Shown here one piece after another: positions 1-39,992 of a DNA stretch of 64,000 nucleotides (position 1 is the first letter of the stretch; every line of letters begins with the position of its first letter). Source of the DNA: Pseudomonadota bacterium. GTDB lineage: Bacteria; Desulfobacterota; Binatia; UBA1149. The stretch lies in contig JACNKC010000057.1 of the NCBI GenBank assembly GCA_014382245.1, positions 174 to 64,173 of the forward strand, given 5' to 3'. The notes under the pieces were generated by a model, which searched no databases, was not told where the DNA came from, and saw nothing but the letters and a program-made list of their open reading frames with translations. Made by a program: the position numbers and the translations under genes.

Positions 1-14
1 GCGTTCGGGGGGGG

Positions 15-917
15 TCAAGCCCCGCGGATGAACGAAGAGATCGCTCGCAGCGGCTGCCGAGGGTAGACCTGCCCCTGCTTGGGCGGCATGGAATTGTAAA
101 CGTAATCGAGCTCCAGGTCGGATAGCAGTCGACCCCGGTGCCGCCAGGTACCCCGTACGAGTACGCTCTCCATGTCGAGATTGATGGCAAACACTGACAA
201 TTGCTGACCGGGTCGAGGGGGGCCTGAGCTTGCCCCTGCCGGTGTACCCGACATCAACAGCCGGCCGCTATTGGCGGCGGTGCATGGCAGGGGAAGTGAT
301 AGGCGGGGGTAGCCGTTGTCGGCTATCCAGGATGCGAACTTGAGTGTTCGTGGAGATCGTAGCAGTCGCTGTGCCCAGTTAGACAAGGCCGGGACGCTGC
401 CGGCGTCGCTCACCCGTAGTGTTCGAGCAGCGGCCAGCGCGCCGGCACCAAGCGCCAGGCGCAGCCTGGGCAGCGCGTGGTTCCCGGCGTAGTGAACGAG
501 GTCCAGGTAGTGGACAGTGTGCACGCCGAAGTAGGCGTTGTAGCGAAACATGGGTTTACTGTTGTAAGCGTCGAGGTCGGCGCCCCCGCTTGCCTTCTCC
601 GCCCAGTGCGCCGTACCGCTCCAGCAGCGGCCCCTGCTGTTTACTATCATGAAGGCCGCGCGCGGGTCCGATTGCAGGTGACTCTTGCCCAGCCCCTCGC
701 AGAACTGACCGAACATGAGCCGCGTGGGATCCTTGGCGTTGAGCGAGGTGATGAGCGTCACGTGGGGCAGCCCCTCGGGATCGCGGGTGGCCAGCAGCCC
801 GATTTTGGCGTCGACGCCAAACGCGGCCATGGCGGCTTGGTCCAGGGCGAGAGGGGGAGTAAGCCCGTCGCGGTCGCCGTTACGTGTGGGCACAGTCTTG
901 TTGCTCCTGTTCATCAT
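15..917 (-). CDS. PNPOx-like FMN-binding split-barrel family protein (about 300 aa), last gene of the GRE operon
   Basis: ORF 15..917. The internal segment GLLATRDPEGLPHVTLITSL is typical of pyridoxamine-5'-phosphate-oxidase-like flavin-binding proteins. Its ATG overlaps the stop of the upstream activase (ATGA coupling at 914-917). It is long for this family, so the start or domain structure is uncertain. Confidence 0.45.
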   Translation of the reverse strand: MMNRSNKTVPTRNGDRDGLTPPLALDQAAMAAFGVDAKIGLLATRDPEGLPHVTLITSLNAKDPTRLMFGQFCEGLGKSHLQSDPRAAFMIVNSRGRCWSGTAHWAEKASGGADLDAYNSKPMFRYNAYFGVHTVHYLDLVHYAGNHALPRLRLALGAGALAAARTLRVSDAGSVPALSNWAQRLLRSPRTLKFASWIADNGYPRLSLPLPCTAANSGRLLMSGTPAGASSGPPRPGQQLSVFAINLDMESVLVRGTWRHRGRLLSDLELDYVYNSMPPKQGQVYPRQPLRAISSFIRGA

Positions 918-2020
918 CGTGCTGCTGGTGGCCTGGGGGTTCTCGCTCCAGTCTGTTTGCCGCCCGGATCACAGGGTACTTTCACCGGGCCGGTCACAAC
1001 GATCTTGTCGCCGTCCAGGCCGCACGAATGTGCCACCTGCTGCAGGTTTTCGAGCTCCCCGGCTGCCATGGTCTCGACACCTTCGAGCTCCCACCGGTTT
1101 CCCAACCGTCGGTACTTGTCGCCGGCCATGTTGTTGAAAGCGAGCAGCTCCCAGCGAGTGACGACGTCACCCAGCTTGCCGGCGATGAACTCTCCCAGCC
1201 CGCGCAGGTTTTCTTCGTTGGCGGTGAGCCCCGGCACCAGCGGCGTACGAATCCACAGAGAATCCCGCCTTTGCTGCTCCCTGAATCGCTGTGCGAGGGC
1301 CAGCACGTTGCGTAGGATTTCGTGGTTGGAGCGGCCAGTGAAATCCGCGTGGCGCGCAGAATCTATTTCCTTGAGGTCGTAGAGCACCAGGTCGGCGTGT
1401 CGCGTTGACCGCTCCAGTGCCTGCCACGTGCACTGCCCGCAGGTGTCGATCGCGGTGTGAATGCCTCGCTCGCGGCAGAGCCGCAACAGCTCGGAAGTGA
1501 ACGCGGGTCTAAGCGAGGGTTCACCGCCCGAGACGGTAACCCCGCCGCCCGAGCAGCCGTACCAGGCCAGGTCGCGGACGACCTCGTCGAAAACGTCGGC
1601 AGCCGATCTCCGTTGTCCCAGCAGTTCGAGCGCTGCCCAGGGGCAGGCGTCTGTGCACGCGGCGTTGCAGCCGTTGCCAGCGCTGCAAAGGGCGTGATCG
1701 ATGTGGATGGTGCCGCCCGTCGCTGTTAGTGCCCCTTTCAAACAGGCATCCTGGCACGGTGTAAGCGCTGGCCTGGCGTCGCCGTTGCTCCCGGTCGTGT
1801 TCTCCCGGGGTATGCACCCGCTGCACCTGGATTCGTGCCACGCCACGCACGTGGCCGACTCCACGCTCTCGGGGTTATGACACCACGTGCACTCCAGGCT
1901 GCAACCCTTGAGAAACACGGTCGTGCGTATGCCCGGACCGTCCTCGGTGGACATTCGCTGCAGGTTGAGCACCGTGGCCTCCGTGTTGTCACGGGCGGTC
2001 GACTGCCGGGAAACCATCAC
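914..2020 (-). CDS. Glycyl radical enzyme activating enzyme (radical SAM, with two auxiliary ferredoxin-like clusters)
   Basis: N-terminus VLNLQRMSTEDGPGIRTTVFLKGCSLECTWCHNPES carries the C-x3-C-x2-C radical-SAM motif and the GRE-activase DGPGIRTTVF box. It is followed by CSGC...CQDAC...CSAGNGCNAACTDAC auxiliary cluster motifs. It lies 10 bp downstream of the GRE gene. Confidence 0.85.
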   Translation of the reverse strand: MMVSRQSTARDNTEATVLNLQRMSTEDGPGIRTTVFLKGCSLECTWCHNPESVESATCVAWHESRCSGCIPRENTTGSNGDARPALTPCQDACLKGALTATGGTIHIDHALCSAGNGCNAACTDACPWAALELLGQRRSAADVFDEVVRDLAWYGCSGGGVTVSGGEPSLRPAFTSELLRLCRERGIHTAIDTCGQCTWQALERSTRHADLVLYDLKEIDSARHADFTGRSNHEILRNVLALAQRFREQQRRDSLWIRTPLVPGLTANEENLRGLGEFIAGKLGDVVTRWELLAFNNMAGDKYRRLGNRWELEGVETMAAGELENLQQVAHSCGLDGDKIVVTGPVKVPCDPGGKQTGARTPRPPAAR

Positions 2021-2030
2021 CGGGTCTACG

Positions 2031-4550
2031 CTAGGAATGCGCCTCCCTGGCTATGACTTCGTCCTGCAGTTCGCGGCCTATGCTGGTGAAGTAGGCGTTG
2101 TAGCCGGTGACGCGTACCAGCAGGTGGCGGTACTCGCCGGGGTTGAGCTGGGCGTCGCGCAGGGTGTCGGTGTCGATCACGTTGACCTGCAGGGCAGTGC
2201 CCCCGTTTTCGCAGTAGCCACGAAGAAACCCCTTGAACTTTTCGCGGTGCTCTGCGTCGCGCAGCAGCGATGGACTGAAGCTCATGGTATGGCTGGCGCC
2301 GTTGGGCAACGAGTTGCGGTAGTCCTGCCAATCTCCGTCGCTGCCCCGTCCACCCAGCGCCTGGCCAACCGAGTTGACGTTGGCCGTGGGGCCACTGGTA
2401 TCGGCGCCGTTGGACGGGCAAATGGCGTTGGACAGGAACCTGCCCCGCGGTCTTCCGTCGGCGCTCGCCGCCATGACGTAGCCGCCGTCCACCCAGTAGT
2501 TCCAGCTGAGCATGCCGGGACGAAAGCGCCGGCCGGTGCTGACCGTGCTGTGCTTCCAGGTTTCATCGGTCCACAGGTCCATCACGGCGCAGGCCATGGC
2601 GTCGGCCTCCTGTTGGTCGCGGCCGTACTTGGGCGCGCGCCAGCGGGCCCAGGCCTGCAGGGTCTCGTGCCCGTCCCAGTTGTCGCGCAGGGCCGCGGTC
2701 AGCTCCTCCATCGAGCACAGACCGCGGTCGTAGACCAGGTACTTTATCGCGCACAGCGAGTCCACGGTGGTGGCGAAGGTTACGCCCTCGAGCGTGGTAA
2801 GGTTGATCTCGGCGCCGCCGCGGGTGACGTCGGTGGCCGTTTCGGCGCAGCCGCCCACGAGGCAGGACAAGTAGGGCGTGGGGCTGAAGCGGGCGCGCAG
2901 GCTCTCGGTACGTTCGTAGAGGTCAACGCAACGTTGCACGATGAACTCGTTCTGCCTGCTGTAGGCCGCCCAGAAGTCTTCCCAGCGATCGAACTTCCCG
3001 GCGTCACCCGTGCGCGGGCCGTCTCGGCTGATTTCGCGGGACTCGCCGGTCACGGCGTCCATCGCGGGGGCGAGATCCTCGCCGCCTGTAAGCGCGAGTT
3101 CAACGGCCTTGAGCAGGTTGAGGTTACTGTCAACGGTTCCTGAACGGTCGTTGCCCACCATGGTGTTTTCCAGGCAGCCAACCGGCGCGTACTCGTGGAC
3201 GTTGTCCTCGTTTACGAGGTGCTGGTAGCCGGCCTCGGCGGCTTCGCGCATCATACCGGCCATGGATCTCTCGTCGAAGTTGAGCAGGAAGGGCGATCCG
3301 TGGCTGCGCGAGATCATGTCGACCACGGTGTCGAGCAGGCGGTTGGGAGAACCGCGGTGCAGCCGTACACTCGGCTTGGGCTCCAGTATGGGGCTCATCT
3401 CGTCGATGACCTCGAGGATGGCGTAGGTCAGGTCGTTGGTCGTGTCGACGCCCTCGGCTCCAATGCCCGAAAGCGTTATGAGCTGGCCGAAGCCGGAGGT
3501 GATTCCCTGGTTGCCGCCGATTTTTATCATGGCGTCGTAAGCCGTGTTGGCGTGTACCCAGAAGCAGCGCAGGATTTCTTTGCCGAACTCGCGATCCATT
3601 CCGTTCTCGATCGAGCGGCGCCAGCAGGGGTAGAGGTACTGGTCTACGCGGCCGAAGCTCAGGCCGGGGCCGGGGTAGTTTTCGTCGCTCATCACCAGCA
3701 TGTGGGTGAGCCACAGGGATTGTACTGCCTCCCAGAAGTTACGCGCGGGAAGCCAGGGCACGCGTTCCAGGTTGCGGGCCATGTTCTCGAGCTCCGCCCG
3801 GCGAGCCGGGTCGGCTTCGTCGCGGGCCTCGTCGCGGCAGCACCCGGCGTATTTTCCGGCCAATTCCCCGGGCATGAGAGCAGCAGTCATCATGGCGCGC
3901 AGTTGCGAGCCGGGTTGGCCGTTTTTAGCAGCGTGGTCGAGTGCGTCGTAGCGTTGTTCGAGGTCGCGGTGGATGGCTCCCCAGCCATGCTCGATCACCC
4001 GTGGGTAGTCGGGTAGCAAATGGCCGGAGGTAGCACCCGTGTTGCCGTAGCCGTGCTCGTGGAAATCCTTGATCGCGGCTCTCGTGCCGCGCGGGCCGTT
4101 GACCTCGGCATCGCGTCGACGGGCTTCCTCGCGGTTCCAGCAGCGCGAGGCGAGCAGGTTGAAGCGGGCCCCGGCTATGAGATCACCGGGCAGTATTTCC
4201 CGCGGCAACCTGTTGACCATTATTTCGCGGATCAGCCACGCGCGGCGCTCGGCGAGCCCCCGTTGCCAGAAGTCATCGGGCAGATCGACCCTGCGCGCAG
4301 CCTGCAGGGTGGAAGAGCGGAACGGTTGAAAGAACGCGTAGGTCTCCGGGACGATGTAGTAGGTGGTCTCGTCGTAGACCACGTCCCAGTCGGTACCGGT
4401 TGTCCAGCAACTGAACTCGTTGTTCCACTCGCGGTCTACGCCGCGAAAGTAGTAGTCGCGCAGCCACTGTGCGCGTGGGGACAACGCGCGGGGCGCGGGT
4501 ACAGCGGGTTGCTGTTCGCGGTGATTCGTTGCGTGTGCTGATCCTGCCAT
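2031..4550 (-). CDS. Glycyl radical enzyme (839 aa), eliminase/dehydratase-type rather than PFL-type; substrate unknown
   Basis: C-terminal glycyl radical motif LLVRVTGYNAYFTSI. Single-Cys thiyl loop PVGCLENTMVG (Cys-x-Glu, as in glycerol dehydratase/CutC/HypD/IslA-type GREs, not the CC of PFL). The size is typical of this class. An activase gene lies immediately downstream. Confidence 0.9.
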   Translation of the reverse strand: MAGSAHATNHREQQPAVPAPRALSPRAQWLRDYYFRGVDREWNNEFSCWTTGTDWDVVYDETTYYIVPETYAFFQPFRSSTLQAARRVDLPDDFWQRGLAERRAWLIREIMVNRLPREILPGDLIAGARFNLLASRCWNREEARRRDAEVNGPRGTRAAIKDFHEHGYGNTGATSGHLLPDYPRVIEHGWGAIHRDLEQRYDALDHAAKNGQPGSQLRAMMTAALMPGELAGKYAGCCRDEARDEADPARRAELENMARNLERVPWLPARNFWEAVQSLWLTHMLVMSDENYPGPGLSFGRVDQYLYPCWRRSIENGMDREFGKEILRCFWVHANTAYDAMIKIGGNQGITSGFGQLITLSGIGAEGVDTTNDLTYAILEVIDEMSPILEPKPSVRLHRGSPNRLLDTVVDMISRSHGSPFLLNFDERSMAGMMREAAEAGYQHLVNEDNVHEYAPVGCLENTMVGNDRSGTVDSNLNLLKAVELALTGGEDLAPAMDAVTGESREISRDGPRTGDAGKFDRWEDFWAAYSRQNEFIVQRCVDLYERTESLRARFSPTPYLSCLVGGCAETATDVTRGGAEINLTTLEGVTFATTVDSLCAIKYLVYDRGLCSMEELTAALRDNWDGHETLQAWARWRAPKYGRDQQEADAMACAVMDLWTDETWKHSTVSTGRRFRPGMLSWNYWVDGGYVMAASADGRPRGRFLSNAICPSNGADTSGPTANVNSVGQALGGRGSDGDWQDYRNSLPNGASHTMSFSPSLLRDAEHREKFKGFLRGYCENGGTALQVNVIDTDTLRDAQLNPGEYRHLLVRVTGYNAYFTSIGRELQDEVIAREAHS

Positions 4551-4566
4551 CGTCGTTGTTTCCTTG

Positions 4567-7479
4567 TCAGGCCGAGGCCATCTCGATCCGTGTCTCGCGG
4601 TCGCTCTGCCCGGGTTGCAGCGAGGCTGGTACCGGTCTCAAGTGATTGTAGCCGCCGGCCAGCTCCACCGGGTTGAGCGGGCTCGGTAGTACGTTGCGGT
4701 AGCCCTTGCCGCCGGGAAACTGGTAGTCCTCCCAGGCGTGGTAGAGGATCACCATGCCCGGGCGCACCGCGTTCGATAGCCGGGCCTTAACGCGGAACTC
4801 GCCCAGGTCGTTGAAGAGGCGCACCGTGTCGCCGTCCTTGATGCCGCGGCTGCGCGCGTCGGGTGCCGCTACGAAGGCGGCCGCTTCTCCGCGCTGCAGT
4901 TGCAGCAGCAGGTCGAGGTTGCGCCAGCCGGCGTGGATGCTCCAGCGGGTGTGGCCGCCGCTGAGCACCAGCGGGTAGTCTCCCCCCGGTCGGGGTACGG
5001 GCAGGTGGGCAGGCAGTTCCTGTCCGAGTTCGAGGTACAAGGGGTGGTCGATGTAAAACTGCACCCTGCGGGTGAGCGTGGGCCAGGGGCCGGGATTGCT
5101 GCGACGCCAACCGCGGTTGACCACCGGTTGGTCGGGCGTCACGTCCGTGGCATTGCCCAGGTTGAAAGGGTGCGTGCCTATTCCGGTTATTCTTTTGAAG
5201 CCATCGTGCCGGAGTTCTTCGAAACCGCCGTCCACGAAGCCGGTCTGTTTTACTATTTCGTGTGCGACCTGCGATTGGGCATGTTCGTCGAAGCGGCCGT
5301 TGAAGGTAAAGCGATGGCCGAAATCATCGAGTCTCTGCTCGTTGCCGTGGCGGTCGCGAAAAGAGGAGACGCCCCGTTCGCGCGCGCGTCGTTCCACCCA
5401 CCGGGCCAGCTCCGCGTGCATGTTCCACTCGGGCTTGCACTCGCCCAGGGGTTCGACGGCCGCCTGGGTGATGTGCAGGTAAGGTGAAAGCAGCGTGAAC
5501 CAGTTGGGTACGTCGTCTTTTTCGTAAGAAGACGCGCCTGGCAGCAGTATGTCGGACTGCAGGCAGGTGGTCGACATGCGCAGGTCGCAGGTGACTACCA
5601 GTTTTATTTTCGGCCAGGCCGTTTCGAGCAGGCGTTGCGCGCTACGCAGGCGCCTCAGTAAATTGCTGCCCGCGACCACGAGCACCCGCGGGGGATCTGC
5701 CGGCGGGCGCTTCTGCCAGTTGTTGTTGTAGGACTCCTCGACGTACTCGTCGATGGGGCGGGGCAGTCGCCTGCCGTGCTCGCCGTCGGTCACCCGGGAC
5801 AAACCGCCGTGGCGTCGCCAGTAAAGCACCGACGATACCACCGACGAATCGTTCATGTAGTCGCGAAAGGCGTCGTATACATAGCGCTCGGTACTGTCGC
5901 CCGCCAGTCGCCGGCCGAGCAGCGCGGGTAGGTGCTTGAGCTTGGCGGCCAGTCCCTCCCACTGGCTGGCGCCGACGGAATCCATGCCCTGCGTCCACAG
6001 GAACGGAGTTGTGTCGAAGCCGGCGCCCGGCTTTCCCACGTGCCCGCCCAGCATGAAAAGCAGCAGTTGCGCCCGCATGATGATGTCGCCGTTGTAGAGC
6101 TTGGGAATAGACGAACCGGCTACGCCGGCCATGGCGCGTGCCCCGGCCACCATATCGGCGAAACGGTGGATGGTTTCAGCCGAGCAGCCGCACAGCTCTG
6201 CCGCTTTTTTGGGCGTGTAGTCCGCGTCGAGTCGCTGGCGCAGGATTTCGAGTACCGGGCGCACGCGGACCGGTCCGTTGTTGGTGCTTACCGTGTAGTT
6301 GCCCTCGAGCGCGGGCGTAACCCCTGCCCAGTCCAGGTCGAAGGGAGCGGGGGAGGGCAGGCCGAGCGAGGGATCCCAGGCGTAGAACTGTTCCTGGCGG
6401 CCGCCTGTGACGAGATCGCTTTCGCGCAGGTAGTGGCCGTCGTCTTTTACCAGCAGTACGAGGTCGGTCTGCGAGCGTACGAAGTCAGCGTCTATGCTGC
6501 CTCGTTCCAATAGTACCTGGCAGGCGGCCAGGGCCAACGCGGCGTCGGTCCCGGGGCGCACGCCTATGAACAGGTCGCTGTGGATGCTCGAGGCCGAGTA
6601 GTCGGTGGCGATGGTGACCACGCGGGTGCCGTTGTAACGGGCCTCGTTGATGAAGTGGGCATTGGGAATCTGCGTGTAAACGGGGTTCGCACCCCAGACC
6701 AGTATGAGATCGGAGTGGAAGAAGTCGTCGGCCGAGCGTGACGATACCGGTGTGCCCATGGTCACCGCTGCGCCGGCCTGCCCGTCGTCGAGCTCGGTGT
6801 TGGTGTCGAGCTCTATGCCGTCGAGCATGTCGACCAGGCGCTGCACGCCCAGCCTCCACGTGGCCGACGCCAGGCTGCCACCGGGCTCAAGGGCCACCGA
6901 GTCGGGACCGGCGAGGGTCACCGCGTCGATGAGCTGGTCGGCGGTCTCGCGGTAGGCTTCGTCCCAGCTGATGCGCTTCCATTTGCCCGAGCCTCTGGGC
7001 CCGACACGTCGCAGCGGGTAGCGCAGGCGGTCGGGCGCGTACATGAGCGCGGAGTAGCAGGCGCCTTTCTGGCAGCCGCGGGGATTGAAGTCGGGTACCT
7101 CGTCGTTTACCGCGGGGTACTCGCCGGCCTGTTCCTCGCGCACGACCACCCCGTCGCGCACGTAGACGTCCCAGGAGCAGTTGCGCTGGTACCAGCAGTT
7201 GACGACGTGCGTACAGCGCACGCGCTTGTCCCAGGCAAGCCGTTGCAGGTAGACGTCCTTCCAGTCGCCGTAGCCCCTTGCTGGAGCGTGGGGCGCGACC
7301 GTACTCGCGGTTGACGTTTCGTATTGGCCGGCATCGCGGTGGCAAGCCGGGACCAGCCCGCCCAGCACGAGGATTGCTGCGCCGCTGCTGCCGCGCCTTA
7401 CGAATTCACGCCTGCTTATTGTTGTTGCCACGCTCGCATCCGTGCCACGTCGGCGCGGGGTGTCGCACACCCCACGCAT
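4567..7479 (-). CDS. TAT-exported molybdopterin (bis-PGD) oxidoreductase alpha subunit, type II DMSO-reductase/NarG-like clade
   Basis: Twin-arginine signal SRREFVRRGSSGAAILVLGG. N-terminal FS0 region GDWKDVYLQRLAWDKRVRCTHVVNCWYQRNCSWDVYVRDG closely parallels the NarG/EbdA/SerA block (W.D.YR..W.WDK.VRSTHGVNCTGSCSW.IYVK.G) and is followed by PRGCQKGACYS (NarG PRGCPRGAS-like). At 970 aa it matches the Mo-bisPGD catalytic subunit. No beta/gamma/delta subunit genes are nearby. Confidence 0.8.
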   Translation of the reverse strand: MRGVCDTPRRRGTDASVATTISRREFVRRGSSGAAILVLGGLVPACHRDAGQYETSTASTVAPHAPARGYGDWKDVYLQRLAWDKRVRCTHVVNCWYQRNCSWDVYVRDGVVVREEQAGEYPAVNDEVPDFNPRGCQKGACYSALMYAPDRLRYPLRRVGPRGSGKWKRISWDEAYRETADQLIDAVTLAGPDSVALEPGGSLASATWRLGVQRLVDMLDGIELDTNTELDDGQAGAAVTMGTPVSSRSADDFFHSDLILVWGANPVYTQIPNAHFINEARYNGTRVVTIATDYSASSIHSDLFIGVRPGTDAALALAACQVLLERGSIDADFVRSQTDLVLLVKDDGHYLRESDLVTGGRQEQFYAWDPSLGLPSPAPFDLDWAGVTPALEGNYTVSTNNGPVRVRPVLEILRQRLDADYTPKKAAELCGCSAETIHRFADMVAGARAMAGVAGSSIPKLYNGDIIMRAQLLLFMLGGHVGKPGAGFDTTPFLWTQGMDSVGASQWEGLAAKLKHLPALLGRRLAGDSTERYVYDAFRDYMNDSSVVSSVLYWRRHGGLSRVTDGEHGRRLPRPIDEYVEESYNNNWQKRPPADPPRVLVVAGSNLLRRLRSAQRLLETAWPKIKLVVTCDLRMSTTCLQSDILLPGASSYEKDDVPNWFTLLSPYLHITQAAVEPLGECKPEWNMHAELARWVERRARERGVSSFRDRHGNEQRLDDFGHRFTFNGRFDEHAQSQVAHEIVKQTGFVDGGFEELRHDGFKRITGIGTHPFNLGNATDVTPDQPVVNRGWRRSNPGPWPTLTRRVQFYIDHPLYLELGQELPAHLPVPRPGGDYPLVLSGGHTRWSIHAGWRNLDLLLQLQRGEAAAFVAAPDARSRGIKDGDTVRLFNDLGEFRVKARLSNAVRPGMVILYHAWEDYQFPGGKGYRNVLPSPLNPVELAGGYNHLRPVPASLQPGQSDRETRIEMASA

Positions 7480-7600
7480 CTACGTGGCGGGCAAGGGCAA
7501 CAAGGGCAGCGGAGCGGAAGCCAGTATATTCGACCTGGCCGGCTATGACAACGCTGAATGGGTGACAGTCTTCCCCCGCGATATACGGCCCGGCCAGTTG

Positions 7601-8848
7601 TCAGCGCAGGTTGGCCAGGTCGATGCTCTTGGGGAAAATCCCGCGGTTGGCGCGGTCGCGCTCCTCCAATCGCTCAATTTCAGCTTCGGGCAGGCCGGCT
7701 TCGGCCATCAGTTCACGGGCGTGCTCTCCTAGCACTGGAGAGGCTGAGCCCAGCCCGGGCTCCTGCCCGTCGAAGGCCAGCGGCGGTCGCGGCAAGCGGC
7801 AGCTTCCGCCCTCGGGGTGCTCGGCTTCGACCAGGGTGTTGCCGTGTCGGACCTGGGGATCCTCGTGAACGCGGTTCACCGGGTTCACCCGGGCCGAGGG
7901 CACGTCAAGCTCGTCGAGCAAGCGGCACAGCGATTCGGTGTCGCGGTCGGCGAGTACGGCGTCCATCTCCTCGGCCAGCTGCTGCCTGTTGGCCACGCGC
8001 CCCCCGAAATTGGCAAACCTGGGATCGGCGTGCAGCTGGCAGCCAAGCGCCTCGCACAGGGCGGCAAAGTCGCTGTCGACTATCAGTATGGTCGACACGT
8101 GGCCGTCGCTGGTGGCAAACAACGGGAAGTAATCGGCAAGTGCCCCCTGTTCGTTTATCTCGTCGCCCAGCAGGGTGTGCTGCCACATGGCGTCGGGCCA
8201 CAGGAAGTACAGCCCCGCGTCCATCATCGACACGGGCAGGAACTGGCCCCGGCCGGTACGCTCGCGCTGAAGCAGCGCTGCGGTTACGGCCTGGGCGGCC
8301 GTCATGCCCGAAACCTTGTCGAACAGCACTGTGCGCACGTTGGCCGGCCTGTCGCCGCCGCCCTGCGCCCCGGCCATGCCGATGGTGGCCTGTACCAGGG
8401 GATCGTACACGCGGCGGTGGACGTAGGGCCCCGACTGCCCGTAGCCAGTGATAGACCCGTAGACGAGGCGGGGATTGACGGCTGCCAGCGACTCGTAGTC
8501 GACACCCAGCTTTGCCGTGACCCCGGGGCGGTAGTTTTCGATAAGCACGTCGGCGGTTTCTACCAGACGCCGCAGGATGGCCGCGTCGTCTGCCTGCTTG
8601 AGGTCCAGGGCTATCGAGCGCTTGTTGCGGTTGAGCACCGAGAACTGTGCGGCGACCCCGTTCCGGTTGTTGCCCATGAAACGCGCGAGGTCACCGGTAC
8701 CCGGCGGCTCAACCTTGACCACGTCGGCGCCCTGGTCGGCCAGTATCATGCCGGCAAGCGGACCAGACACAGTGGAGGTGAGTTCGATGACGCGGTAGCC
8801 GGCCAGCGGCCCAGCGACGGTACGTTGACCATATCCTTTATTCGCCAT
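7601..8848 (-). CDS. CoA-transferase family III (CaiB/BaiF/Frc-like) protein
   Basis: GPLAGYRVIELTSTVSGPLAGMILADQGADVVKVEPPG...IENYRPGV...GSITGYGQSGPY are family-III CoA-transferase hallmarks. Start set at internal ATG (MANKGYGQRTVAG, 416 aa) rather than the 603-aa ORF whose N-terminal extension is low-complexity. There is a 120 bp gap to the Mo-enzyme gene on the same strand. Confidence 0.8.
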   Translation of the reverse strand: MANKGYGQRTVAGPLAGYRVIELTSTVSGPLAGMILADQGADVVKVEPPGTGDLARFMGNNRNGVAAQFSVLNRNKRSIALDLKQADDAAILRRLVETADVLIENYRPGVTAKLGVDYESLAAVNPRLVYGSITGYGQSGPYVHRRVYDPLVQATIGMAGAQGGGDRPANVRTVLFDKVSGMTAAQAVTAALLQRERTGRGQFLPVSMMDAGLYFLWPDAMWQHTLLGDEINEQGALADYFPLFATSDGHVSTILIVDSDFAALCEALGCQLHADPRFANFGGRVANRQQLAEEMDAVLADRDTESLCRLLDELDVPSARVNPVNRVHEDPQVRHGNTLVEAEHPEGGSCRLPRPPLAFDGQEPGLGSASPVLGEHARELMAEAGLPEAEIERLEERDRANRGIFPKSIDLANLR

Positions 8849-8933
8849 GGGGGTAATATTTTGACTCGCCCACGCTGTGTCCAATCCCGAAAGTGGGTTA
8901 TCGGACGCTTCCCCCTTTTGATAGGGTTCGCGC

Positions 8934-10700
8934 ATGCTCCACGCGATTCCGGGTTGGCGCCAGCATAAGCTGGCTGTTTCGGTGATCTGCGTGGCTCTTA
9001 CCGCCGCTGCTGCTTGCACGCGGACACCGGCTACCACGGTGTTCGTGGCCCGTAGTGTTGTGACCATGGACCCGGCGAATCCACGGGCCGAGGCCGTGGC
9101 GGTGGCCGAGGGAAAGATCCTCGCGGTGGGCAGTCGCGAGGAGCTCTCGCCGCTGGCCGGCTGCAAGGGCTGCGTGATCGACAAGCGCTTTGCCGACGAT
9201 GTGCTGTTGCCCGGCTTCGTGGAGAACCACCTGCACCCCGACATGGCAGCCATGCTGCTGGCGTTACCGATAACGGCACCGTTTGACTGGGAACTGCCGG
9301 GCGGAACGATCAAGGGCATACGCGGCAGGCAGGCTTTTCTCGACAGGTTGCGCGAACTCGATGCCGCTCTTGGCGACGGCTCTCTTGAAGACGGTGGCCA
9401 GCCGCTGATCACCTGGGGCTACCACGATTTCTTTCACGGTGCGGGACTCGACCGAGACGCGCTCGACGCGGTGTCGACCACGCGCGCAGTGGTGGCCTGG
9501 CACCGTTCGTTTCACGAGGTCATAGCCAATTCGGTCGCGCTCGAGTGGATGGGAGTCACCCGCGAGACGGCGGCGCGGCTGCCCGGTGTCGCTTTGCGCG
9601 CAGACGGCGAGCCCACCGGCCGCCTGTCGGAGCTGGGGCTGCTGGTCGCGCTCGGTACGCTGTCCCCGGTGGTGCTGGGCGAAGAGGCCATGGATCGCGG
9701 TCACTCCATCGTGCGGCAGATGATACACCGCGGCGGCATCACCACGGTTGTCGACATGGCCTACGGCATGTTCAGCGACGAGCGCGAGTGGCCGATTCTC
9801 AAGCGCAACCTCGACCGCGACGACGTGCCTTTTCGCACCCGCCTGGTGCCTCTGCCCTTCGCCCTGGGACGCGAGTGGGGCGAGGATCTGTTCGACAGGG
9901 TAGAGGCCCTGCCGCAACGCAACAGTGAGCGCCTGGCCTTCGTGCGGCAGGTCAAGATGATAGGAGACGGCGCGTTCTTTTCCCTGTTGATGCGAATGCA
10001 ACCGCCGGGATACCTGGAGGGGGGAGTGGGCGAGTGGAACACCGAGCCGGGGCGCATGGTCGAGGGTCTCGCGCCCTGGTGGAAAGCGGGCTACCAGCTG
10101 CACGTGCACAGCAACGGCGACGCGGCCCAGGTGGCGGTGCTCGACGCGCTCGATCAGCTGCAGGCCGAGCACCCGCGAGAGGATCACCGCTTTACCTTTC
10201 ATCACTTTGCGCAGGCGCGCCCGAACGAGCTGGATCGCATGGCCGCGGCCGGTGCGTTGGTGTCAGCCAACGTGTACTACAACTACTTCATGGCCGACAT
10301 TTACGCCGAGCGCGGGCTTGGCCTGCCGCGCGCCGAGAAGATCACGCCGCTGGGGTCGCTGGTCAAGCGCGGGGTGAAGGTGTCGCTGCATTCCGACCTG
10401 CCCATGGGGCCGGCGCGCCCGCTGCTCGCGGCCTGGGCCGCTGCCACTCGGCTGACCCATGAAGGCAAGACCCGTGGCGCCGACGAGGCGCTTACCCCGG
10501 GGCAGGCCCTGCTCGCGATCACCAGCGACGCGGCCTACGCGGTGGGTATGGAAGACGAGGTTGGCAGCATACGAGTGGGCCTCAGGGCCGACTTCGTGGC
10601 GTTGCCCGACGATCCGTTGTCGGTGGAGCTAGACGAGTGGCCCAACATTATCCCGGTGGCCACCGTGCTCTCGGGTAAAGTTTACCCGGTCAGGCAATAG
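8934..10700 (+). CDS. Amidohydrolase family (amidohydrolase-3-like) metallo-hydrolase, probable lipoprotein/secreted
   Basis: N-terminal hydrophobic signal ending LTAAAAC (lipobox-like). The metal-binding motif ENHLHPD and the overall layout match amidohydrolase-3-type enzymes. It is divergent from the CoA-transferase/GRE operon. Confidence 0.7.
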   Translation: MLHAIPGWRQHKLAVSVICVALTAAAACTRTPATTVFVARSVVTMDPANPRAEAVAVAEGKILAVGSREELSPLAGCKGCVIDKRFADDVLLPGFVENHLHPDMAAMLLALPITAPFDWELPGGTIKGIRGRQAFLDRLRELDAALGDGSLEDGGQPLITWGYHDFFHGAGLDRDALDAVSTTRAVVAWHRSFHEVIANSVALEWMGVTRETAARLPGVALRADGEPTGRLSELGLLVALGTLSPVVLGEEAMDRGHSIVRQMIHRGGITTVVDMAYGMFSDEREWPILKRNLDRDDVPFRTRLVPLPFALGREWGEDLFDRVEALPQRNSERLAFVRQVKMIGDGAFFSLLMRMQPPGYLEGGVGEWNTEPGRMVEGLAPWWKAGYQLHVHSNGDAAQVAVLDALDQLQAEHPREDHRFTFHHFAQARPNELDRMAAAGALVSANVYYNYFMADIYAERGLGLPRAEKITPLGSLVKRGVKVSLHSDLPMGPARPLLAAWAAATRLTHEGKTRGADEALTPGQALLAITSDAAYAVGMEDEVGSIRVGLRADFVALPDDPLSVELDEWPNIIPVATVLSGKVYPVRQ

Positions 10701-11775
10701 CAGCGGCAAGCGCGGCGGCGGCATCGGCCATGGCCTGGCGCGCCCCGCGGCTCACCTGGGTGGTGTTGGCAAAGCCGTGCACTTGGCCTTCGACACGGCA
10801 CAGCGTTACCGGCACTCCGGCCAGTTCGAGTCGCTCGGCGTATGCTTCGCCCTCGTCTCTGAGGGGGTCGAAGCCGGCCGTGGTGACGTAAGCCGGTGGC
10901 AGGCCCGAAAGGTCTTCTGCCAGCAGCGGCGAAGCCGAGGGGTCTTCGACGGCCTGCTGGCGGTCACCCGTGTAGTGGCGGATGTACCACTCCATCTGCG
11001 AGGCGGTCAGAAAAAAACCGTCGGCGAACAAGCGGTACGATTCGCTGCGGGCCGACAGGTCGGTGACCGGGTAGATTGGCAGCTGGAAGGCCGGCGAGGG
11101 TCCGCCGTCGCGCGTGGCGCGCAGCGAAACCGAGGCCGCCAGGTTGCCACCGGCGCTGTCGCCGCCAACCGCCACCCGCGATGCGTTGATGGCCAGGCGC
11201 TCGGCGTTTTCGAGCGCCCAGCGAAACGCCGCCAGGGCGTCGTCGGTCGCCGCCGGAAAGGGATGTTCGGGGGCCAGCCGGTAGTCCACCGATAATACCT
11301 TGACGCCGGCCTTCTCTGCGAGGAATCGGCAGGGCTGGTCATGGCTGTCGATGCTGCCCACCACCCATCCTCCACCGTGGTAGTAGACCAGCAGGCCGCC
11401 GCCATCGGCGCAAGCGTGGGGCACGTAGAGTCGCGCGGCGAGTTCGCCGTCCGCGCCAGCGCAGGAGAGTTCCTCGACGCGTTGCATGGCTATGGGTTCA
11501 CCGCTTGCGACAGCCGCGCCGCTTTCGATGTGCTGCCGTACCTCGGCCACGGTCAGGTCGTCGTATGATGGGTGATCGTCGAACGACATCGCGAGCAGCA
11601 GCAGTTGCACGTCTGCGTCCAGCGTGAGGCCATCCACGCGGGTGGAACTGCCACCGGCGAGCAGGAGCTGCAGGCGTTCGGGCAGAGCCATCATCGATCG
11701 CAGCAACAGGCGTTGGGCTTTTTCAGCGAGGCCGAGCGGGCGTGGTTCCATGGTGGTCATCCTCCGCGGCAACAC
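10690..11775 (-). CDS. Alpha/beta hydrolase, HSL-family esterase/lipase (Aes-like)
   Basis: Contains the HGGG oxyanion motif (LLVYYHGGGWVVGS) and the nucleophile elbow GDSAGG, both typical of hormone-sensitive-lipase-family esterases. Confidence 0.8.
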   Translation of the reverse strand: MLPRRMTTMEPRPLGLAEKAQRLLLRSMMALPERLQLLLAGGSSTRVDGLTLDADVQLLLLAMSFDDHPSYDDLTVAEVRQHIESGAAVASGEPIAMQRVEELSCAGADGELAARLYVPHACADGGGLLVYYHGGGWVVGSIDSHDQPCRFLAEKAGVKVLSVDYRLAPEHPFPAATDDALAAFRWALENAERLAINASRVAVGGDSAGGNLAASVSLRATRDGGPSPAFQLPIYPVTDLSARSESYRLFADGFFLTASQMEWYIRHYTGDRQQAVEDPSASPLLAEDLSGLPPAYVTTAGFDPLRDEGEAYAERLELAGVPVTLCRVEGQVHGFANTTQVSRGARQAMADAAAALAAAIA

Positions 11776-11852
11776 GATTACGATATCGCGGAGGGCGAGA
11801 CCAGGGCCGGCGGGTAGTTACATATCGGGGACAAGATGATAAAAGGCTTGGG

Positions 11853-12674
11853 GTGGAAGTTCTTCTTACAGGCGCGGCCCTCGGGGCCGAAGTAAGGGGG
11901 CTTGATCTCACCCGCGAATTGACGGGTACAGAGTTAGCAGCGGTGACGGCGGCGCTGGTCGAACACAAGGTGCTGTTTTTTCGCGACCAGCCTCTTGGGC
12001 CGGCCGACCACCACCGCTTTGCGTCATACTTCGGGCCGCTGCAACGCCACCCCGCGTTTCCGCACGTGGACGACTACCCCGAGCTCACCATACTCGAAAG
12101 CGACCGCGCGCGTCCTTCAAAAATAGACAAGTGGCACTGCGACATGACTTACCTCGAGTGCCCACCGCTGGGCAGCGTGCTCAGGGCTACCGTCATTCCT
12201 GACAAGGGCGGCGACACGATGTGGATGAATCTCGAGGCGGCCTGGCAGGCGCTGCCCCTGGACTTGCAGCAAAGGTTGGCCCAAATGCAGGCCGAGCACA
12301 GCTTTGCGCATGGCTACCGAGAGAGCCTGGCCGAACCCGGCGGCAGGGACCGTCTCGCGCGGGCCGTGGCCGACAACCCGCCCGTGCTGCACCCGGTGAT
12401 GCGTCGTCACCCGGTCAGCAAGCGGCCCTGCTTGTTCGTCAACAGCCTGTTCACCACGCGCCTGCTTGGCATGGAAGAACGCGAGAGCGAGCAACTGCTG
12501 GCGCGGCTGTACGCGCACATCGAGAAGCCGGAGTTTCGGTACCGCTTCAGTTGGGAGGTCGACTCGATCGCTTTCTGGGACAACCGAGCCACGCAGCATA
12601 AGCCGGTACAGGATTGGTGGCCGGCGCGGCGTTGTCACCAGCGCATTACCATAGAGGGCGACAGACCGGTGTGA
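11853..12674 (+). CDS. TauD/TfdA-family Fe(II)/2-oxoglutarate dioxygenase (taurine dioxygenase-like)
   Basis: Aligns by eye along its length with E. coli TauD, including WHCDMTYLECPP (TauD WHTDVTF), the GGDTMW metal-binding region and C-terminal WDNRATQHK. Start moved to in-frame GTG at 11853 (MEVLLTGAALGAEVRGLDLT matches the TauD N-terminus, with an AAGG RBS). The ORF finder start was 11742. Confidence 0.8.
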   Translation: MEVLLTGAALGAEVRGLDLTRELTGTELAAVTAALVEHKVLFFRDQPLGPADHHRFASYFGPLQRHPAFPHVDDYPELTILESDRARPSKIDKWHCDMTYLECPPLGSVLRATVIPDKGGDTMWMNLEAAWQALPLDLQQRLAQMQAEHSFAHGYRESLAEPGGRDRLARAVADNPPVLHPVMRRHPVSKRPCLFVNSLFTTRLLGMEERESEQLLARLYAHIEKPEFRYRFSWEVDSIAFWDNRATQHKPVQDWWPARRCHQRITIEGDRPV

Positions 12675-16653: not shown

Positions 16654-16869
16654 GCTGCAGCCGTTTCGTGCGTGCCAGGGTCGGGCGGTGCGACGCCGGG
16701 CCACGGGCAGGAGCATGACCCACCGGGCGGAGGCTTGTCAAGGTTGTATCGTTAGGTGGTGGGTGGCTTTGTTGCCTTTACCGCCAATGAAGGTGACATT
16801 CTCCTGGCCGGGTATATTCCGGGTACCCGGGTCGCGAGCTCACGTGGCCCGGCGCAACTGGGGGAGCAC

Positions 16870-17865
16870 GTGGAGTATGCAGTAGTAGTCGGGGGAGGGC
16901 AGGTCGAGCAGGAAGGGCACGGCCTGGAGGCCTTTGTTGGGCAGGCCCAGCTGGCCGAGTCGCTGGGTTATACGACCGTCTTCGTGCCCGACCATTATCT
17001 TTTTGAACAGATGGGCGAGCTCAAGACCGAGCAGCCAACCTACGAGTTGTTTGCGCTGCTTGGTGCCATCGCCCAGCGCACGCGCAGCATCAAGCTGGGC
17101 AGCCACGTGGCCTGCACGCTGTTTCGTCACCCGGCCATGCTCGCTCGCCAGTTTGCCCAGCTCGACGAGCTCAGTGGAGGTCGCGTGATTGCCGGCGTGG
17201 GTGCGGGCTGGACGAGGTCCGAGTTCGAGATGTTCGGACTGGACTTTCCGCCGGTGTCCGAGCGCCTGCGTATGATGGACGAGGCGGTGGAGATCATGCA
17301 GGCACTGTGGACCGGCGAGCCCTGCAGTTTTGACGGCGAGCACTATCGCCTGCGCGACGCCGTGGCCAGGCCGACCCCGACGCAACAGCCGCGACCACCG
17401 CTGATGCTGGGCGGCGGTGGCAAGGGCATACTCCGGCGCGCCGGGCGCTGGGCCGACATCCTCCACATGGTGCCCGAGATCGGCAAGGCCGGTACGACCA
17501 CGATGGAGAACGTGTCCGCCTTTCACGACGACGTGGTGGCAGAAAAGCTAGCACTGGTGCGAGAGGAGGCCAAGGATGCCGGCCGGCCGGACGGTGCCGT
17601 GCGCTACGCTACGACGATTTTCGTTTACCAGCCCGCCGACAGTGAGAAGCAGGCCGCCGAGACCGCCGAGGGCGCGGCTGCCATGTTCGGGCTCACGGCC
17701 GAGCAGTTCTGCCGTCACCCGGCCGTGCTCGCGGGAACTACCGATCAGATGGTCGAGGAACTGCAGCGTCGTGAGCGCGTGCACGGATTGTCCATCGTTG
17801 CGCTGGAGGCGACCGGGCTCGACAGTATCCGCAATTTCGCCGAGCGTATAATCGCCAACGGCTAA
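16870..17865 (+). CDS. LLM-class (luciferase-like) flavin/F420-dependent oxidoreductase
   Basis: GSHVACTLFRHPAMLARQFAQLDELSGGRVIAGVGAGW...FDGEHYRL and C-terminal LMLGGGGKG are signatures of the luciferase-like monooxygenase family. Start moved to in-frame GTG at 16870 (331 aa, typical size). Confidence 0.75.
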   Translation: MEYAVVVGGGQVEQEGHGLEAFVGQAQLAESLGYTTVFVPDHYLFEQMGELKTEQPTYELFALLGAIAQRTRSIKLGSHVACTLFRHPAMLARQFAQLDELSGGRVIAGVGAGWTRSEFEMFGLDFPPVSERLRMMDEAVEIMQALWTGEPCSFDGEHYRLRDAVARPTPTQQPRPPLMLGGGGKGILRRAGRWADILHMVPEIGKAGTTTMENVSAFHDDVVAEKLALVREEAKDAGRPDGAVRYATTIFVYQPADSEKQAAETAEGAAAMFGLTAEQFCRHPAVLAGTTDQMVEELQRRERVHGLSIVALEATGLDSIRNFAERIIANG

Positions 17866-20981: not shown

Positions 20982-22244
20982 TCAGTCCTCACCCGCGGCC
21001 TCGGCGTCAAATTCAATGTACATCTCTTTTACGCCCGAGATGAAATTGGACACCAGCTGACGGTGCTCGCCCAGCAGGCGGGGGTTGCGCAGGCGCGGTA
21101 TCATTTCTTCGAACATAACGGTCAGCTCCTTGCGCGCCAGGTGTGAGCCCAGGCAGAAGTGCTGGCCTATGCCGAAGGTGCGGTGCTCGCTTTTGAGCTC
21201 GGGCATACGCTGCGCGCGGGTCACGTCGAAGGCTTCCGAATCGGGTCCGAACACCGACTGCTCGTGGTTGGCCGAAGGGTAATACATGCGCAGGATGTCG
21301 CCTTTTTTTACCTGCTTGTCGCCCACGGTGACGTCGCGGGTGGCGGTGCGCTGCATGTAGTTGAAGGACGGATGATAGCGCAGGATTTCTTCTACCGCGC
21401 CTGGTATCAGCGAGGGGTCGTCTACCAGCAGTTGCAGTTGCTCGGGGTGCTCGATGAGCAGGCGCATGCCCTGGCTGGTGGCCGTTCTCGTGGTCTCGAT
21501 TCCGCCGGCGATCAGTATCAGGAAGAAGGCGCAAAACTCGAATTCGTCGAGGGCCTCGCCTTCGACCACGCCGTTGAGCAGGGCGTCGAGCACGGTGCCC
21601 TCCCTGGGATTGGTCTTGTGCTCGGCGGCCAGGCCCATGGCGATTTCGAACAGGCGCGCTGCAGCCAACTGGCCGTCTTCCGAGCTCACGTTGAGCTCGG
21701 GGTCGTCCATGCCGATCATCACGTCCACCAGGTCCGAGAATTCCTTGCGTTTTTCTGAGGGCATTTCCATGAGTGCGCAGATGACGAACAAGGGCATCTC
21801 GGCAGCCACCTCCGAGGCGAACTCGCAGCGTCCCCTCGCCGCGATCTTGTCGATGATCTCGCGGGCGCGTTCTCGCATCATGGGCTCGAGCGCATCGACA
21901 GCGCGCAAGGTGAAGGCGTTGCGTACAACCTTGCGGTACTGGTTGTGGTCGGGGGGATCCATGTTGATGATCAGCCGCCGCATGATTTCCTGCTCTGCCG
22001 GGTCGTCGCCGGCGGGATGCGGGTGCGCCATGTTTATCGACGACGAGAACAGGCCGGGGTTCTTGGAGACAAAATCTATCTCCTCTCGCCTGGTGAGCGC
22101 CCAGAACTCGCCCGAGTGCTCGGTCGCATCCTGCCTTGAGACCGGGCACTGGCTCCTGAGCGTGGCCAGGTCTTCAAACGGTATGCCGTGGCTCATGCGC
22201 TCGGGGTCCATGAGGTTGAACTGGTAGGGGCATTCGTCGTTCAT
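20982..22244 (-). CDS. Cytochrome P450 monooxygenase
   Basis: Canonical heme-thiolate signature FGIGQHFCLGSHLARKE (FxxGxHxCxG), the EEILRY (ExxR) motif and the AGGIETT I-helix oxygen-binding motif. 420 aa. Confidence 0.9.
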   Translation of the reverse strand: MNDECPYQFNLMDPERMSHGIPFEDLATLRSQCPVSRQDATEHSGEFWALTRREEIDFVSKNPGLFSSSINMAHPHPAGDDPAEQEIMRRLIINMDPPDHNQYRKVVRNAFTLRAVDALEPMMRERAREIIDKIAARGRCEFASEVAAEMPLFVICALMEMPSEKRKEFSDLVDVMIGMDDPELNVSSEDGQLAAARLFEIAMGLAAEHKTNPREGTVLDALLNGVVEGEALDEFEFCAFFLILIAGGIETTRTATSQGMRLLIEHPEQLQLLVDDPSLIPGAVEEILRYHPSFNYMQRTATRDVTVGDKQVKKGDILRMYYPSANHEQSVFGPDSEAFDVTRAQRMPELKSEHRTFGIGQHFCLGSHLARKELTVMFEEMIPRLRNPRLLGEHRQLVSNFISGVKEMYIEFDAEAAGED

Positions 22245-22324
22245 GTTATCTCCAGGGGGGTATCAGACGCCTCCCCCTTTTAGCGGGGCGGGGTTGGCTT
22301 GGCCAGCCCCGCGGTGCAGGGTGG

Positions 22325-39014: not shown

Positions 39015-39992
39015 ATGAACGTGGAATACGGAACCTTCGTACCGCAGGGCTGGCGCATGGAGATGCAGCATCTCCAGGGCGGCCAATCCCAGTGGAATGT
39101 CTTGACCGCGAGCGCGCGCGCGCTTGAAGACGCTGGCTACGACTCGTTGTGGTTGTACGACCACTTTCACACCGTGCCGCGTCCGGCCATGGAGCCGACC
39201 TTCGAGTGCTGGAGTACGATGGCCGCTCTGTCGCAGGTGACAAGCCGAGTGCGCCTGGGCCAGCTGGTGACCTGCAGCGCCTATCGCAACCCGGCTTACC
39301 TCGCCAAGCTGGCCAGCTGCGTTGACGTGATGAGCGGCGGCAGGGTCGACCTTGGAATAGGCGCCGGCTGGAAGACCGAGGAGTTCGAAGCCTACCAGTA
39401 CCCGTTTGCCGGCATACGCGAGCGCCTCGACCGCATGGCCGACACGGCGCGTATCTGCCGCGCGATGTTCACGGACGAGAAAGCCACCGTAGAGGGAGTG
39501 TACCACCGGGTGACCGACGCCATCAACGAGCCAAAGCCCGTGCAGGCCGGGGGGCCCCCGATCTGGATAGGCACGCAGGGCGAAAAAGTCGGCCTGCGCA
39601 TGGTGGCCGAAGTGGCCGACGGCTGGAACCATAACCGTGGGCCCGACGAGTACGAGCGCAAGCGCGAGATCCTTGCAGGGCATTGTCGCGACCGCGGCCG
39701 CGACCCCGACAGCGTGCGCATATCAGTGGAGAACACCTGCGTGATCTACGAGAGCGAAGCCGAGCTACGTGATTTTGCCGCTCGCTGGTGGCCGCACTAC
39801 AACGAGAAACAACTCACCAGGTTCCTGGCCAACTGCTGGACCGGGAGGGCCGAGGATATCGCGGCCGAGATAAGGTTTTTTACCGAGCGGGGAGCGTCGC
39901 TGGTGATCTGCTGGTTCCAGGACCTCTGTGACGCCGGCAATGAGGATTCGCAGGCGCAGCGATTTATGCGCGAGGTCGTGCCGCTGGTCTGA
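39015..39992 (+). CDS. LLM-class F420/flavin-dependent oxidoreductase
   Basis: MNVEYGTFVPQGWRMEM...LWLYDHF...GRVDLGIGAGWKTEEFEAYQYPF...GGPPIWIGTQGEK match the luciferase-like monooxygenase family. Confidence 0.8.
   Translation: MNVEYGTFVPQGWRMEMQHLQGGQSQWNVLTASARALEDAGYDSLWLYDHFHTVPRPAMEPTFECWSTMAALSQVTSRVRLGQLVTCSAYRNPAYLAKLASCVDVMSGGRVDLGIGAGWKTEEFEAYQYPFAGIRERLDRMADTARICRAMFTDEKATVEGVYHRVTDAINEPKPVQAGGPPIWIGTQGEKVGLRMVAEVADGWNHNRGPDEYERKREILAGHCRDRGRDPDSVRISVENTCVIYESEAELRDFAARWWPHYNEKQLTRFLANCWTGRAEDIAAEIRFFTERGASLVICWFQDLCDAGNEDSQAQRFMREVVPLV

Follow-up and report, generated by a model that had tools for sequence, protein, structure and literature searches.

The stretch of DNA analysed here (the window; 64,000 nucleotides (nt) of contig JACNKC010000057.1, from a Binatia genome) opens with five closely spaced genes on the minus strand, which the original prediction had described as an operon that joins a glycyl radical enzyme (GRE) to a molybdoenzyme. 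In the order of transcription they encode a family III CoA-transferase (7601-8848; 415 amino acids (aa); CoA_transf_3, 364.9 bits), an alpha subunit of the Mo-bisPGD type (for molybdenum bis(pyranopterin guanine dinucleotide)) that resembles EbdA and steroid C25 dehydrogenase (S25DH) (4567-7479; 970 aa; Molybdopterin and Molydop_binding domains; TIGR03479, 797 bits), the GRE itself (2031-4550; 839 aa; PFL-like, 367 bits, and Gly_radical, 75.9 bits), a radical-SAM GRE activase (914-2020; 368 aa; TIGR02494, 277 bits against a cutoff of 174) in which the CxxxCxxC motif reads CSLECTWC, and a PNPOx-like tandem split-barrel protein (15-917; 300 aa) with a marginal PNPOx_N score of 30.6 bits against a cutoff of 28.1. 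We assigned the genes by comparing Pfam and NCBIfam profile scores with the curated cutoffs, and these scores and the open reading frames (ORFs) bear out the coordinates and identities originally given to all five. The predicted spacings also hold for the three downstream junctions: 16 nt between the molybdoenzyme and GRE genes (4551-4566, minus strand, with the ribosome-binding site AAGGAAA 9 nt before the GRE ATG), 10 nt between the GRE and activase genes, and a 4-nt ATGA overlap of the activase and PNPOx-like genes. The gap between the CoA-transferase and molybdoenzyme genes, given as 120 nt, reads as 121 nt. The CoA-transferase ORF as called mechanically (7601-9412) extends 188 codons 5′ of the true start, into the divergent Amidohydro_3 gene (8934-10700); we fixed the start at the ATG at 8848, because the CoA_transf_3 profile begins 15 residues after it.

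The five-gene locus is real. An identical GRE occurs on eight contigs from at least four independent assemblies (ERZ24794647, ERZ24794648, SRR29139952 and ERR13319468) with the gene order unchanged, and in the NCBI metagenome-assembled genome (MAG) 'Proteobacteria bacterium' H8E45 the GRE (MBC8292490.1) and the molybdoenzyme (MBC8292491.1) have consecutive accessions. GC content and skew are even over the five-gene junctions.

A sigma-70-like promoter match (7523-7551, minus strand; TTGTCA-17-TATACT, 10 of 12 consensus positions) lies in the gap between the CoA-transferase and molybdoenzyme genes, and a second promoter-like match (8883-8855) precedes the CoA-transferase gene. Three such sites were found in the region against 1.0 expected, each of them a consensus match only. 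We found no terminator-like site between the five genes and no convincing one after the PNPOx-like gene, and no riboswitch, for molybdenum cofactor or otherwise, in positions 1-12000, where the single match (Prion_pknot, E 0.31) is attributable to chance. The 16-nt spacer before the GRE gene is too short to hold a GRE promoter of its own. Judged from these signals, the likely transcript would run from the promoter candidate in the CoA-transferase/molybdoenzyme gap through the molybdoenzyme, GRE, activase and PNPOx-like genes, with the CoA-transferase possibly transcribed separately. The short gaps, the lack of terminator-like sites and the promoter-like match thus agree with the co-transcription proposed originally.

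The GRE combines the features of its superfamily: a glycine radical motif (LVRVTG816YNAYF; PF01228 Gly_radical, 75.9 bits against a cutoff of 22.2), a Cys loop and a cognate activase gene 10 nt downstream. The loop, VGC459LE461, aligns with GCVE of HypD and GCIE of IslA and is of the Cys-x-Glu form typical of eliminases, as had been predicted. The protein, whose family we call GRE-A, is like HypD (PDB 6vxc), IslA (7kq3), CutC (5fau) and glycerol/propanediol dehydratase in its PFL-like and Gly_radical folds, and shares with these eliminases the RVxGY motif, the GC-x-E loop and an adjacent TIGR02494-type activase. However, it scores below all NCBIfam equivalog cutoffs, those for HpsG/HpfG, PFL, IAD and HPAD among them (HypD, 346 against 1100 bits; HpsG, 340 against 1000; CutC, 279 against 1050) and below the PFL2-3 subfamily cutoff (378 against 678). 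Among solved structures in the PDB it is about equidistant from HypD (264 bits), IslA (255), CutC (251) and PFL2 (249); with about 25-35% identity, it is similarly far from all characterised eliminases (264 to 230 bits). Its N-terminal 170 residues have no counterpart in characterised GREs.

GRE-A has 3767 homologues at E ≤ 1e-20, the best 120 of which are 67-74% identical to it and about 835-840 aa long. Clustering at 50% identity gave one main cluster and a few sister clusters (34-49% identity) that have the same N-terminal region, whereas ordinary GREs are 30-35% identical and align only from residue ~170 onward. In a scan of one genome per species, at least 581 stretches encode a GRE-A relative. 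The best 80 of these loci carry MAG labels that include Binatia, Myxococcales, Syntrophaceae, Desulfobacterales (with Desulfosudis oleivorans), Anaerolineae, Spirochaetota, Bacteroidales and Gemmatimonadota, and GRE-A loci cover more than eight phylum-level groups, between which the proteins remain about 65-74% identical. The window GRE departs from the ≥95% consensus at ten positions, mostly conservatively, against a family median of five; by this measure it is an ordinary member of GRE-A, with no indication of neofunctionalisation. GRE-A, a large GRE family without a characterised member, is together with its constant split-barrel partner a firmer novelty than the five-gene operon. Our literature searches returned no description of the family, nor of a GRE combined with a PNPOx-like or split-barrel protein, with a GntR regulator or with an EbdA-like enzyme.

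To delimit what is conserved around GRE-A, we compared the best 80 of the at least 581 genome loci and the two nearest metagenome loci (82 in all), searching the genome loci by tblastn with the window proteins and clustering all ORFs of 79 loci into neighbour families. The order GRE, activase, PNPOx-like gene is kept in every GRE-A locus with enough sequence 3′ of the GRE. The molybdoenzyme is absent: tblastn (E < 1e-10) found it in none of the 80 genome loci, and neither of the two metagenome loci has it. The CoA-transferase has a single match among the 80 (30% identical and 8 kb distant). The two nearest metagenomic relatives, whose GREs are 73-74% identical to that of the window, read GntR–GRE–activase–PNPOx and GRE–activase–PNPOx, and neither has the molybdoenzyme or the CoA-transferase. 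What often accompanies the cassette is a regulator: in 43 of 79 loci a GntR gene of about 254 aa lies on the same strand immediately 5′ of the GRE (median spacing −12 nt). The protein is of the FadR/FCD type and closest to NanR, PdhR, GlcC and LldR. The window has no GntR homologue at E < 1e-5, and the molybdoenzyme gene takes the position that GntR usually holds. Given this placement, the molybdoenzyme, GRE, activase and split-barrel genes probably form one transcript. The conserved unit is therefore the GRE with its activase and the tandem split-barrel protein, often with GntR, and the comparison lends no support to the idea that all five genes make up one conserved, undescribed pathway. The gene-neighbourhood check that the original prediction itself had proposed finds GRE–molybdoenzyme synteny in none of the genome and metagenome loci; the grounds that it had named for its own refutation largely apply.

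No other family recurs near GRE-A in more than 11 of the 79 loci. The sole other recurrent metabolic neighbour is a glycerol-kinase-like gene about −38 nt upstream of GRE-A in five loci (for example, L023:1388-2866), a possible clue to a glycerol-derived substrate. In two GRE-A loci (L021:10001-13459 and L052:332-5495) the PNPOx-like gene is present and tblastn detected no activase between it and the GRE gene; in L021 it follows the GRE gene immediately. The activase of these two loci may be divergent or encoded elsewhere.

The constant partner of GRE-A in these loci, the 300-aa PNPOx-like protein, is a member of the split-barrel superfamily by fold. Its predicted structure (pLDDT 87.6) consists of two split barrels in tandem, each of which matches small FMN-, F420- or haem-binding proteins in the model. 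The D. vulgaris FMN-binding protein, HupZ and F420-dependent reductases share the fold of each half; here, by contrast, two barrels are fused in one 300-aa chain. The protein has no sequence-level relative in the PDB and contains an invariant loop, FRYNAYFG-H-V-H. A flavin would be its probable cofactor. The closest item in the literature is LssP, a PNPOx-like protein without an assigned role that is likewise encoded in, and expressed from, a GRE operon, that of limonenylsuccinate synthase (PMC12583861). The pathway partners of known GREs are replaced in GRE-A loci by this constant tandem split-barrel protein and the GntR regulator.

Alignment with characterised eliminases also bears on the substrate of GRE-A. 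HypD Asp278, HypD Thr645 and IslA Arg678 are residues with roles ascribed to them in these enzymes. HypD Asp278 aligns with Pro295 of GRE-A, within an invariant SDENYPGPG loop, and at the position of IslA Arg678 and HypD Thr645 GRE-A has a 4-residue insertion and an invariant Arg-rich RRFRPGMLSWNYW hairpin. Because of these replacements and the FCD-type regulator, the sequence suggests an anionic hydroxy compound as the substrate.

The molybdoenzyme is, by its sequence signature, a divergent alpha subunit of the type II dimethyl sulfoxide (DMSO) reductase family. It has the twin-arginine translocation (TAT) motif SRREFV, and the arginine pair is conserved across its close clade, in line with the export signal originally reported. 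Gene calls give 933, 954 or 970 aa; the 933-aa form begins at Val38 and lacks the TAT leader, and both longer forms keep the motif. The match to the clade and to TIGR03479 sets in at residue ~22, which supports one of the longer forms. The best relative among solved structures is EbdA, the alpha subunit of ethylbenzene dehydrogenase (PDB 2ivf), at 539 bits, ahead of perchlorate reductase at 455 bits. Aligned to EbdA, the protein shows the His/Cys3 pattern of the FS0 cluster (H91-x3-C95-x5-C101...C136), Asp232 at the place of the EbdA Mo ligand D223, and Lys460 at that of K450; TAT leader, FS0 ligands, Asp ligand and Lys are thus shared with the EbdA and S25dA alpha subunits of the same family. 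By contrast, the position of EbdA His192, an active-site residue, is Gly200. The FS0 ligands, the Asp ligand, Lys460, Gly200-Gly201 and the arginine pair are all invariant in the close clade. The enzyme scores below the curated cutoffs of TIGR03479 (797 against 984.75 bits) and, by far, of the EbdA equivalog (552 against 2000 bits); in this score and in its invariant Gly for His192 it differs from EbdA. Its G+C content at third codon positions (GC3) matches that of the neighbouring genes. Its predicted location is the periplasm, that of the GRE the cytoplasm.

Homologues of the molybdoenzyme form tiers, with a close clade (64-71% identity; mean column identity 76%) followed by relatives at about 50% and then at about 45%. 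We sampled the close clade protein by protein and inspected ten neighbourhoods; 82 loci of the wider family came from a metagenome scan, with relatives of at most 52% identity among the matches listed. In eight of the ten close-clade contexts the gene is solitary amid unrelated neighbours, which for several of these genes include acyl-CoA dehydrogenases, short-chain dehydrogenases/reductases and MMPL/sterol-sensing transporters. Relatives occur amid beta-oxidation-type genes, a point of likeness to the EbdA and S25dA systems. In the wider family, about 25 of the 82 loci carry an iron–sulphur (FeS) beta and an EB_dh-like gamma subunit in the order gamma-beta-alpha, as judged by clustering and tblastn. 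All of these belong to tiers of at most 49% identity, and neither the close clade nor, save for one locus (L098), the group at 49-52% has a beta or gamma gene nearby. Six loci (L117, L125, L101, L121, L127 and L114) have one beta/gamma pair ahead of two or three alpha paralogues in tandem, an arrangement from uncultivated sediment bacteria that echoes the multi-alpha S25DH system of Sterolibacterium.

The description of the window molybdoenzyme as an orphan stands: the 64-kb window has no beta, gamma or delta subunit gene beside it, and it lacks the neighbours of an ethylbenzene-dehydrogenase-type alpha-beta-gamma(-delta) operon, namely genes for an FeS beta subunit, a haem b gamma subunit and a chaperone. 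A tblastn search with the beta and gamma subunits of related loci likewise had no match in the window; its one match in L001, which extends past window position 1, scored 84 bits and fell on the FeS subunit of another complex. That region of L001 (16527-22520, opposite strand) holds a respiratory-type gene set about 2 kb beyond the PNPOx-like gene and a gene for a 610-aa trypsin-like protease. The set encodes a 489-aa multihaem cytochrome, NrfD, a 4Fe-4S protein, two cytochrome c7-like proteins and a 787-aa Mo oxidoreductase (Molybdop_Fe4S4), and resembles Psr or alternative complex III. It has its own Mo subunit and is no supply of beta and gamma subunits for the orphan alpha. A precedent for sharing comes from Sterolibacterium denitrificans, in which eight alpha paralogues occur and alpha1 was produced with the beta3/gamma3 subunits encoded beside another alpha gene (PMC6016249); an alpha gene, as in S25dA1-8, can be encoded apart from the beta and gamma subunits that it uses (PMC6016249). 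By analogy with this shared-subunit system, the most likely explanation for the orphan alpha subunit is that its partners are encoded elsewhere in the genome. The original prediction had noted, as a weakness of its own case, that both enzymes might belong to well-characterised families with their usual partners elsewhere. For the molybdoenzyme, the solitary genes and the Sterolibacterium precedent indicate that the partners can indeed lie elsewhere.

The CoA-transferase belongs to family III, as it has a full-length CoA_transf_3 domain (profile positions 1-365 of 366), the same domain that is found at full length in Frc, CaiB, BbsEF and succinate-glutarate CoA-transferase. It reaches no equivalog cutoff; the best of these models, succinate-glutarate CoA-transferase, gives 244 bits where 750 are required, and we therefore assign it no specificity. 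Family III CoA-transferases occur near relatives of the molybdoenzyme in six of the 82 wider loci, and one of them, immediately 3′ of the molybdoenzyme gene, is 40% identical to that of the window.

We favour, with moderate confidence, the view that the locus is a species-specific join of two independent modules, which would be expressed together and need not act on one molecule. The first (15-4550) would be a self-contained, horizontally widespread cassette for an O2-sensitive GRE eliminase. Its radical-SAM activase would generate the radical at Gly816, from which a thiyl radical would arise at Cys459, with Glu461 as the base acting on the substrate hydroxyl. The split-barrel protein might reduce the carbonyl or imine product or, alternatively, deliver the single electron required by the activase. 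Elsewhere the FadR-type GntR protein would control the cassette, and such control would make a small carboxylate-bearing hydroxy compound of common metabolism the probable substrate. The second module (4567-8848) would pair the EbdA/S25DH-like Mo-bisPGD alpha subunit with the family III CoA-transferase. The alpha subunit would be exported by the TAT pathway and would borrow its FeS (beta) and haem b (gamma) subunits from elsewhere; enzymes of its kind hydroxylate unactivated alkyl carbons with water, ahead of CoA-dependent beta-oxidation. A genome in which the two modules are apart is that of MAG GCA_029261835.1, where both orthologues lie on different contigs: the GRE (P0004, 73% identical) in a cassette with GntR, and the molybdoenzyme (P0138, 70% identical) by itself on another.

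Several observations weigh against independent modules. The 16-nt gap before the GRE gene, which holds no promoter, links GRE expression to the molybdoenzyme gene, an arrangement that would be unusual if the two were unrelated. The beta and gamma genes of the window genome were not located in the 64-kb window and the L001 flank. Furthermore, relatives of the molybdoenzyme adjoin two other GRE families in uncharacterised metagenomic loci, to which the original statement that known GRE loci contain no Mo-bisPGD oxidoreductase does not extend. Among the ten close-clade contexts, that of L170/L171 (two NCBI MAGs) shows an eliminase-type GRE, GRE-C (822 aa; 30% identical to the window GRE; PFL2-3, 614 bits), immediately 5′ of the molybdoenzyme gene. 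A second family, GRE-B, stands beside distant orphan alpha subunits in three architectures (L140:3093-12733, also L137 and L148; L145:708-13578; and L155:3607-12878). This makes about five independent molybdoenzyme–GRE architectures in about 85 molybdoenzyme loci against about one expected, a rough, back-of-envelope estimate for a genome of 4000 genes with a few GREs among them, which involves no formal test. The excess could reflect real pathways that use both enzymes, or a clustering of horizontally acquired anaerobic catabolic genes.

The molybdoenzyme relative in L170 (5424-10757; L171 has the same arrangement) is 70% identical to that of the window. In both loci its frame runs on in frame past the TGA of GRE-C, with no ATG, GTG or TTG before the arginine pair, and in L170 GGAGG lies 9 nt 5′ of an in-frame ACG; a non-canonical start, read-through or a sequencing error is possible. 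The L170 neighbours comprise a MR_MLE enolase-superfamily gene and Amidohydro_3 and, on the opposite strand, an MtmB-like methyltransferase and a corrinoid protein; no activase gene is adjacent. GRE-B (848 aa) has the Cys loop GCCVNP, which lacks the Glu, and is closest in the PDB to CutC (406 bits), MasD (354) and BSS (345). It is accompanied by an activase, two family III CoA-transferases, and DUF35 and thiolase genes. These loci have the look of an anaerobic catabolic cluster, as yet undescribed, with beta-oxidation genes of the bbs kind. The alpha genes beside GRE-B, of which L145 has two in tandem, have no beta or gamma match on their contigs.

The strongest alternative, which we consider somewhat unlikely, is that the five genes are coupled in one pathway: a periplasmic Mo hydroxylase would install or oxidise a hydroxyl group to give the vicinal hydroxy compound that the GRE cleaves, or would consume the product of the GRE, and the CoA-transferase would activate the acid. 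The molybdoenzyme would then act as a feeder and broaden the range of substrates open to an otherwise autonomous GRE cassette. The tight, operon-like spacing and the common promoter candidate speak for such coupling, as do the EbdA-like orphan alphas beside GRE-A (window), GRE-C and GRE-B, and the family III CoA-transferases near molybdoenzyme relatives; it is the recurrence beside other GRE families that keeps functional coupling in play. Yet the molybdoenzyme is missing from all 82 other GRE-A loci, and GCA_029261835.1 keeps both genes unlinked with GntR in place. The two enzymes are predicted to reside in different compartments, the molybdoenzyme in the periplasm and the GRE in the cytoplasm, and the window GRE bears no sign of altered specificity. 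Nor does a single chemistry link the three GRE families, which are mutually only 24-31% identical and of which GRE-B lacks the eliminase Glu. With three families so different in chemistry, and with no other GRE-A locus linked to the molybdoenzyme, we rate coupling at this locus as somewhat unlikely. A broader form of the idea, which we regard as doubtful, is that stand-alone EbdA-like alphas are recurrent functional partners of GREs in uncultivated Binatia, Myxococcota and Desulfobacterota, such that the molybdoenzyme would hydroxylate an unactivated carbon with water and in this way make or process a functional group for the GRE then to cleave or add to, with different molybdoenzyme paralogues pairing with at least three GRE families (GRE-A, GRE-B and GRE-C).

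It is very improbable that the molybdoenzyme gene is a stranded, non-functional alpha remnant that came by chance to lie upstream of the GRE cassette. The missing beta, gamma and delta genes (64-kb window and extra L001 flank), the TIGR03479 score below cutoff and the replacement of EbdA His192 by Gly would all fit such a remnant, but the ORF is full length, GC3 matches that of the neighbouring genes, and the clade is 64-71% identical with invariant FS0 ligands, Asp, Lys460 and arginine pair. Gly200-Gly201 is itself invariant in the clade, which marks it as a clade feature and not as decay. An assembly chimera at about 4550-4567 or 7480-7600, which the original prediction had considered, can be rejected with near certainty: no point was found in its support, GC and skew are uniform, and the recurrence of the same junctions in at least four independent assemblies, together with the consecutive accessions in the NCBI MAG, excludes it.

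The flanks of the five genes are a metabolic mosaic and no anaerobic island. The flanking genes encode Amidohydro_3, an esterase, TauD, GATase and a Na/Ala symporter; a P450, another TauD-family protein and luciferase-like monooxygenases are also encoded, and there is a beta-oxidation block (27.8-39 kb). Genes for O2-dependent enzymes are found within 20-40 kb of the O2-sensitive GRE (P450, TauD-family and luciferase-like, at 20982-24669, 16756-17865 and 39015-39992), and the other of the two TauD-family genes lies at ~11742-12674. The organism is probably a facultative one with a versatile metabolism, as has been reported for Binatia-like MAGs.

If the view of two independent modules is correct, the five-gene 'operon' represents no new pathway. 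GRE-A and its constant tandem split-barrel partner, a pairing not known from characterised GRE systems, are a clear target for enzymology in environmental anaerobes, and the locus also draws attention to solitary EbdA/S25DH-like alpha subunits, which form a sizeable clade. Should the placement of such subunits beside three GRE families be functional, it would constitute a new theme in anaerobic C–H activation and cleavage; and if the partnership of molybdoenzyme and GRE is true, the window locus would be one case of an undescribed class of anaerobic catabolic routes.

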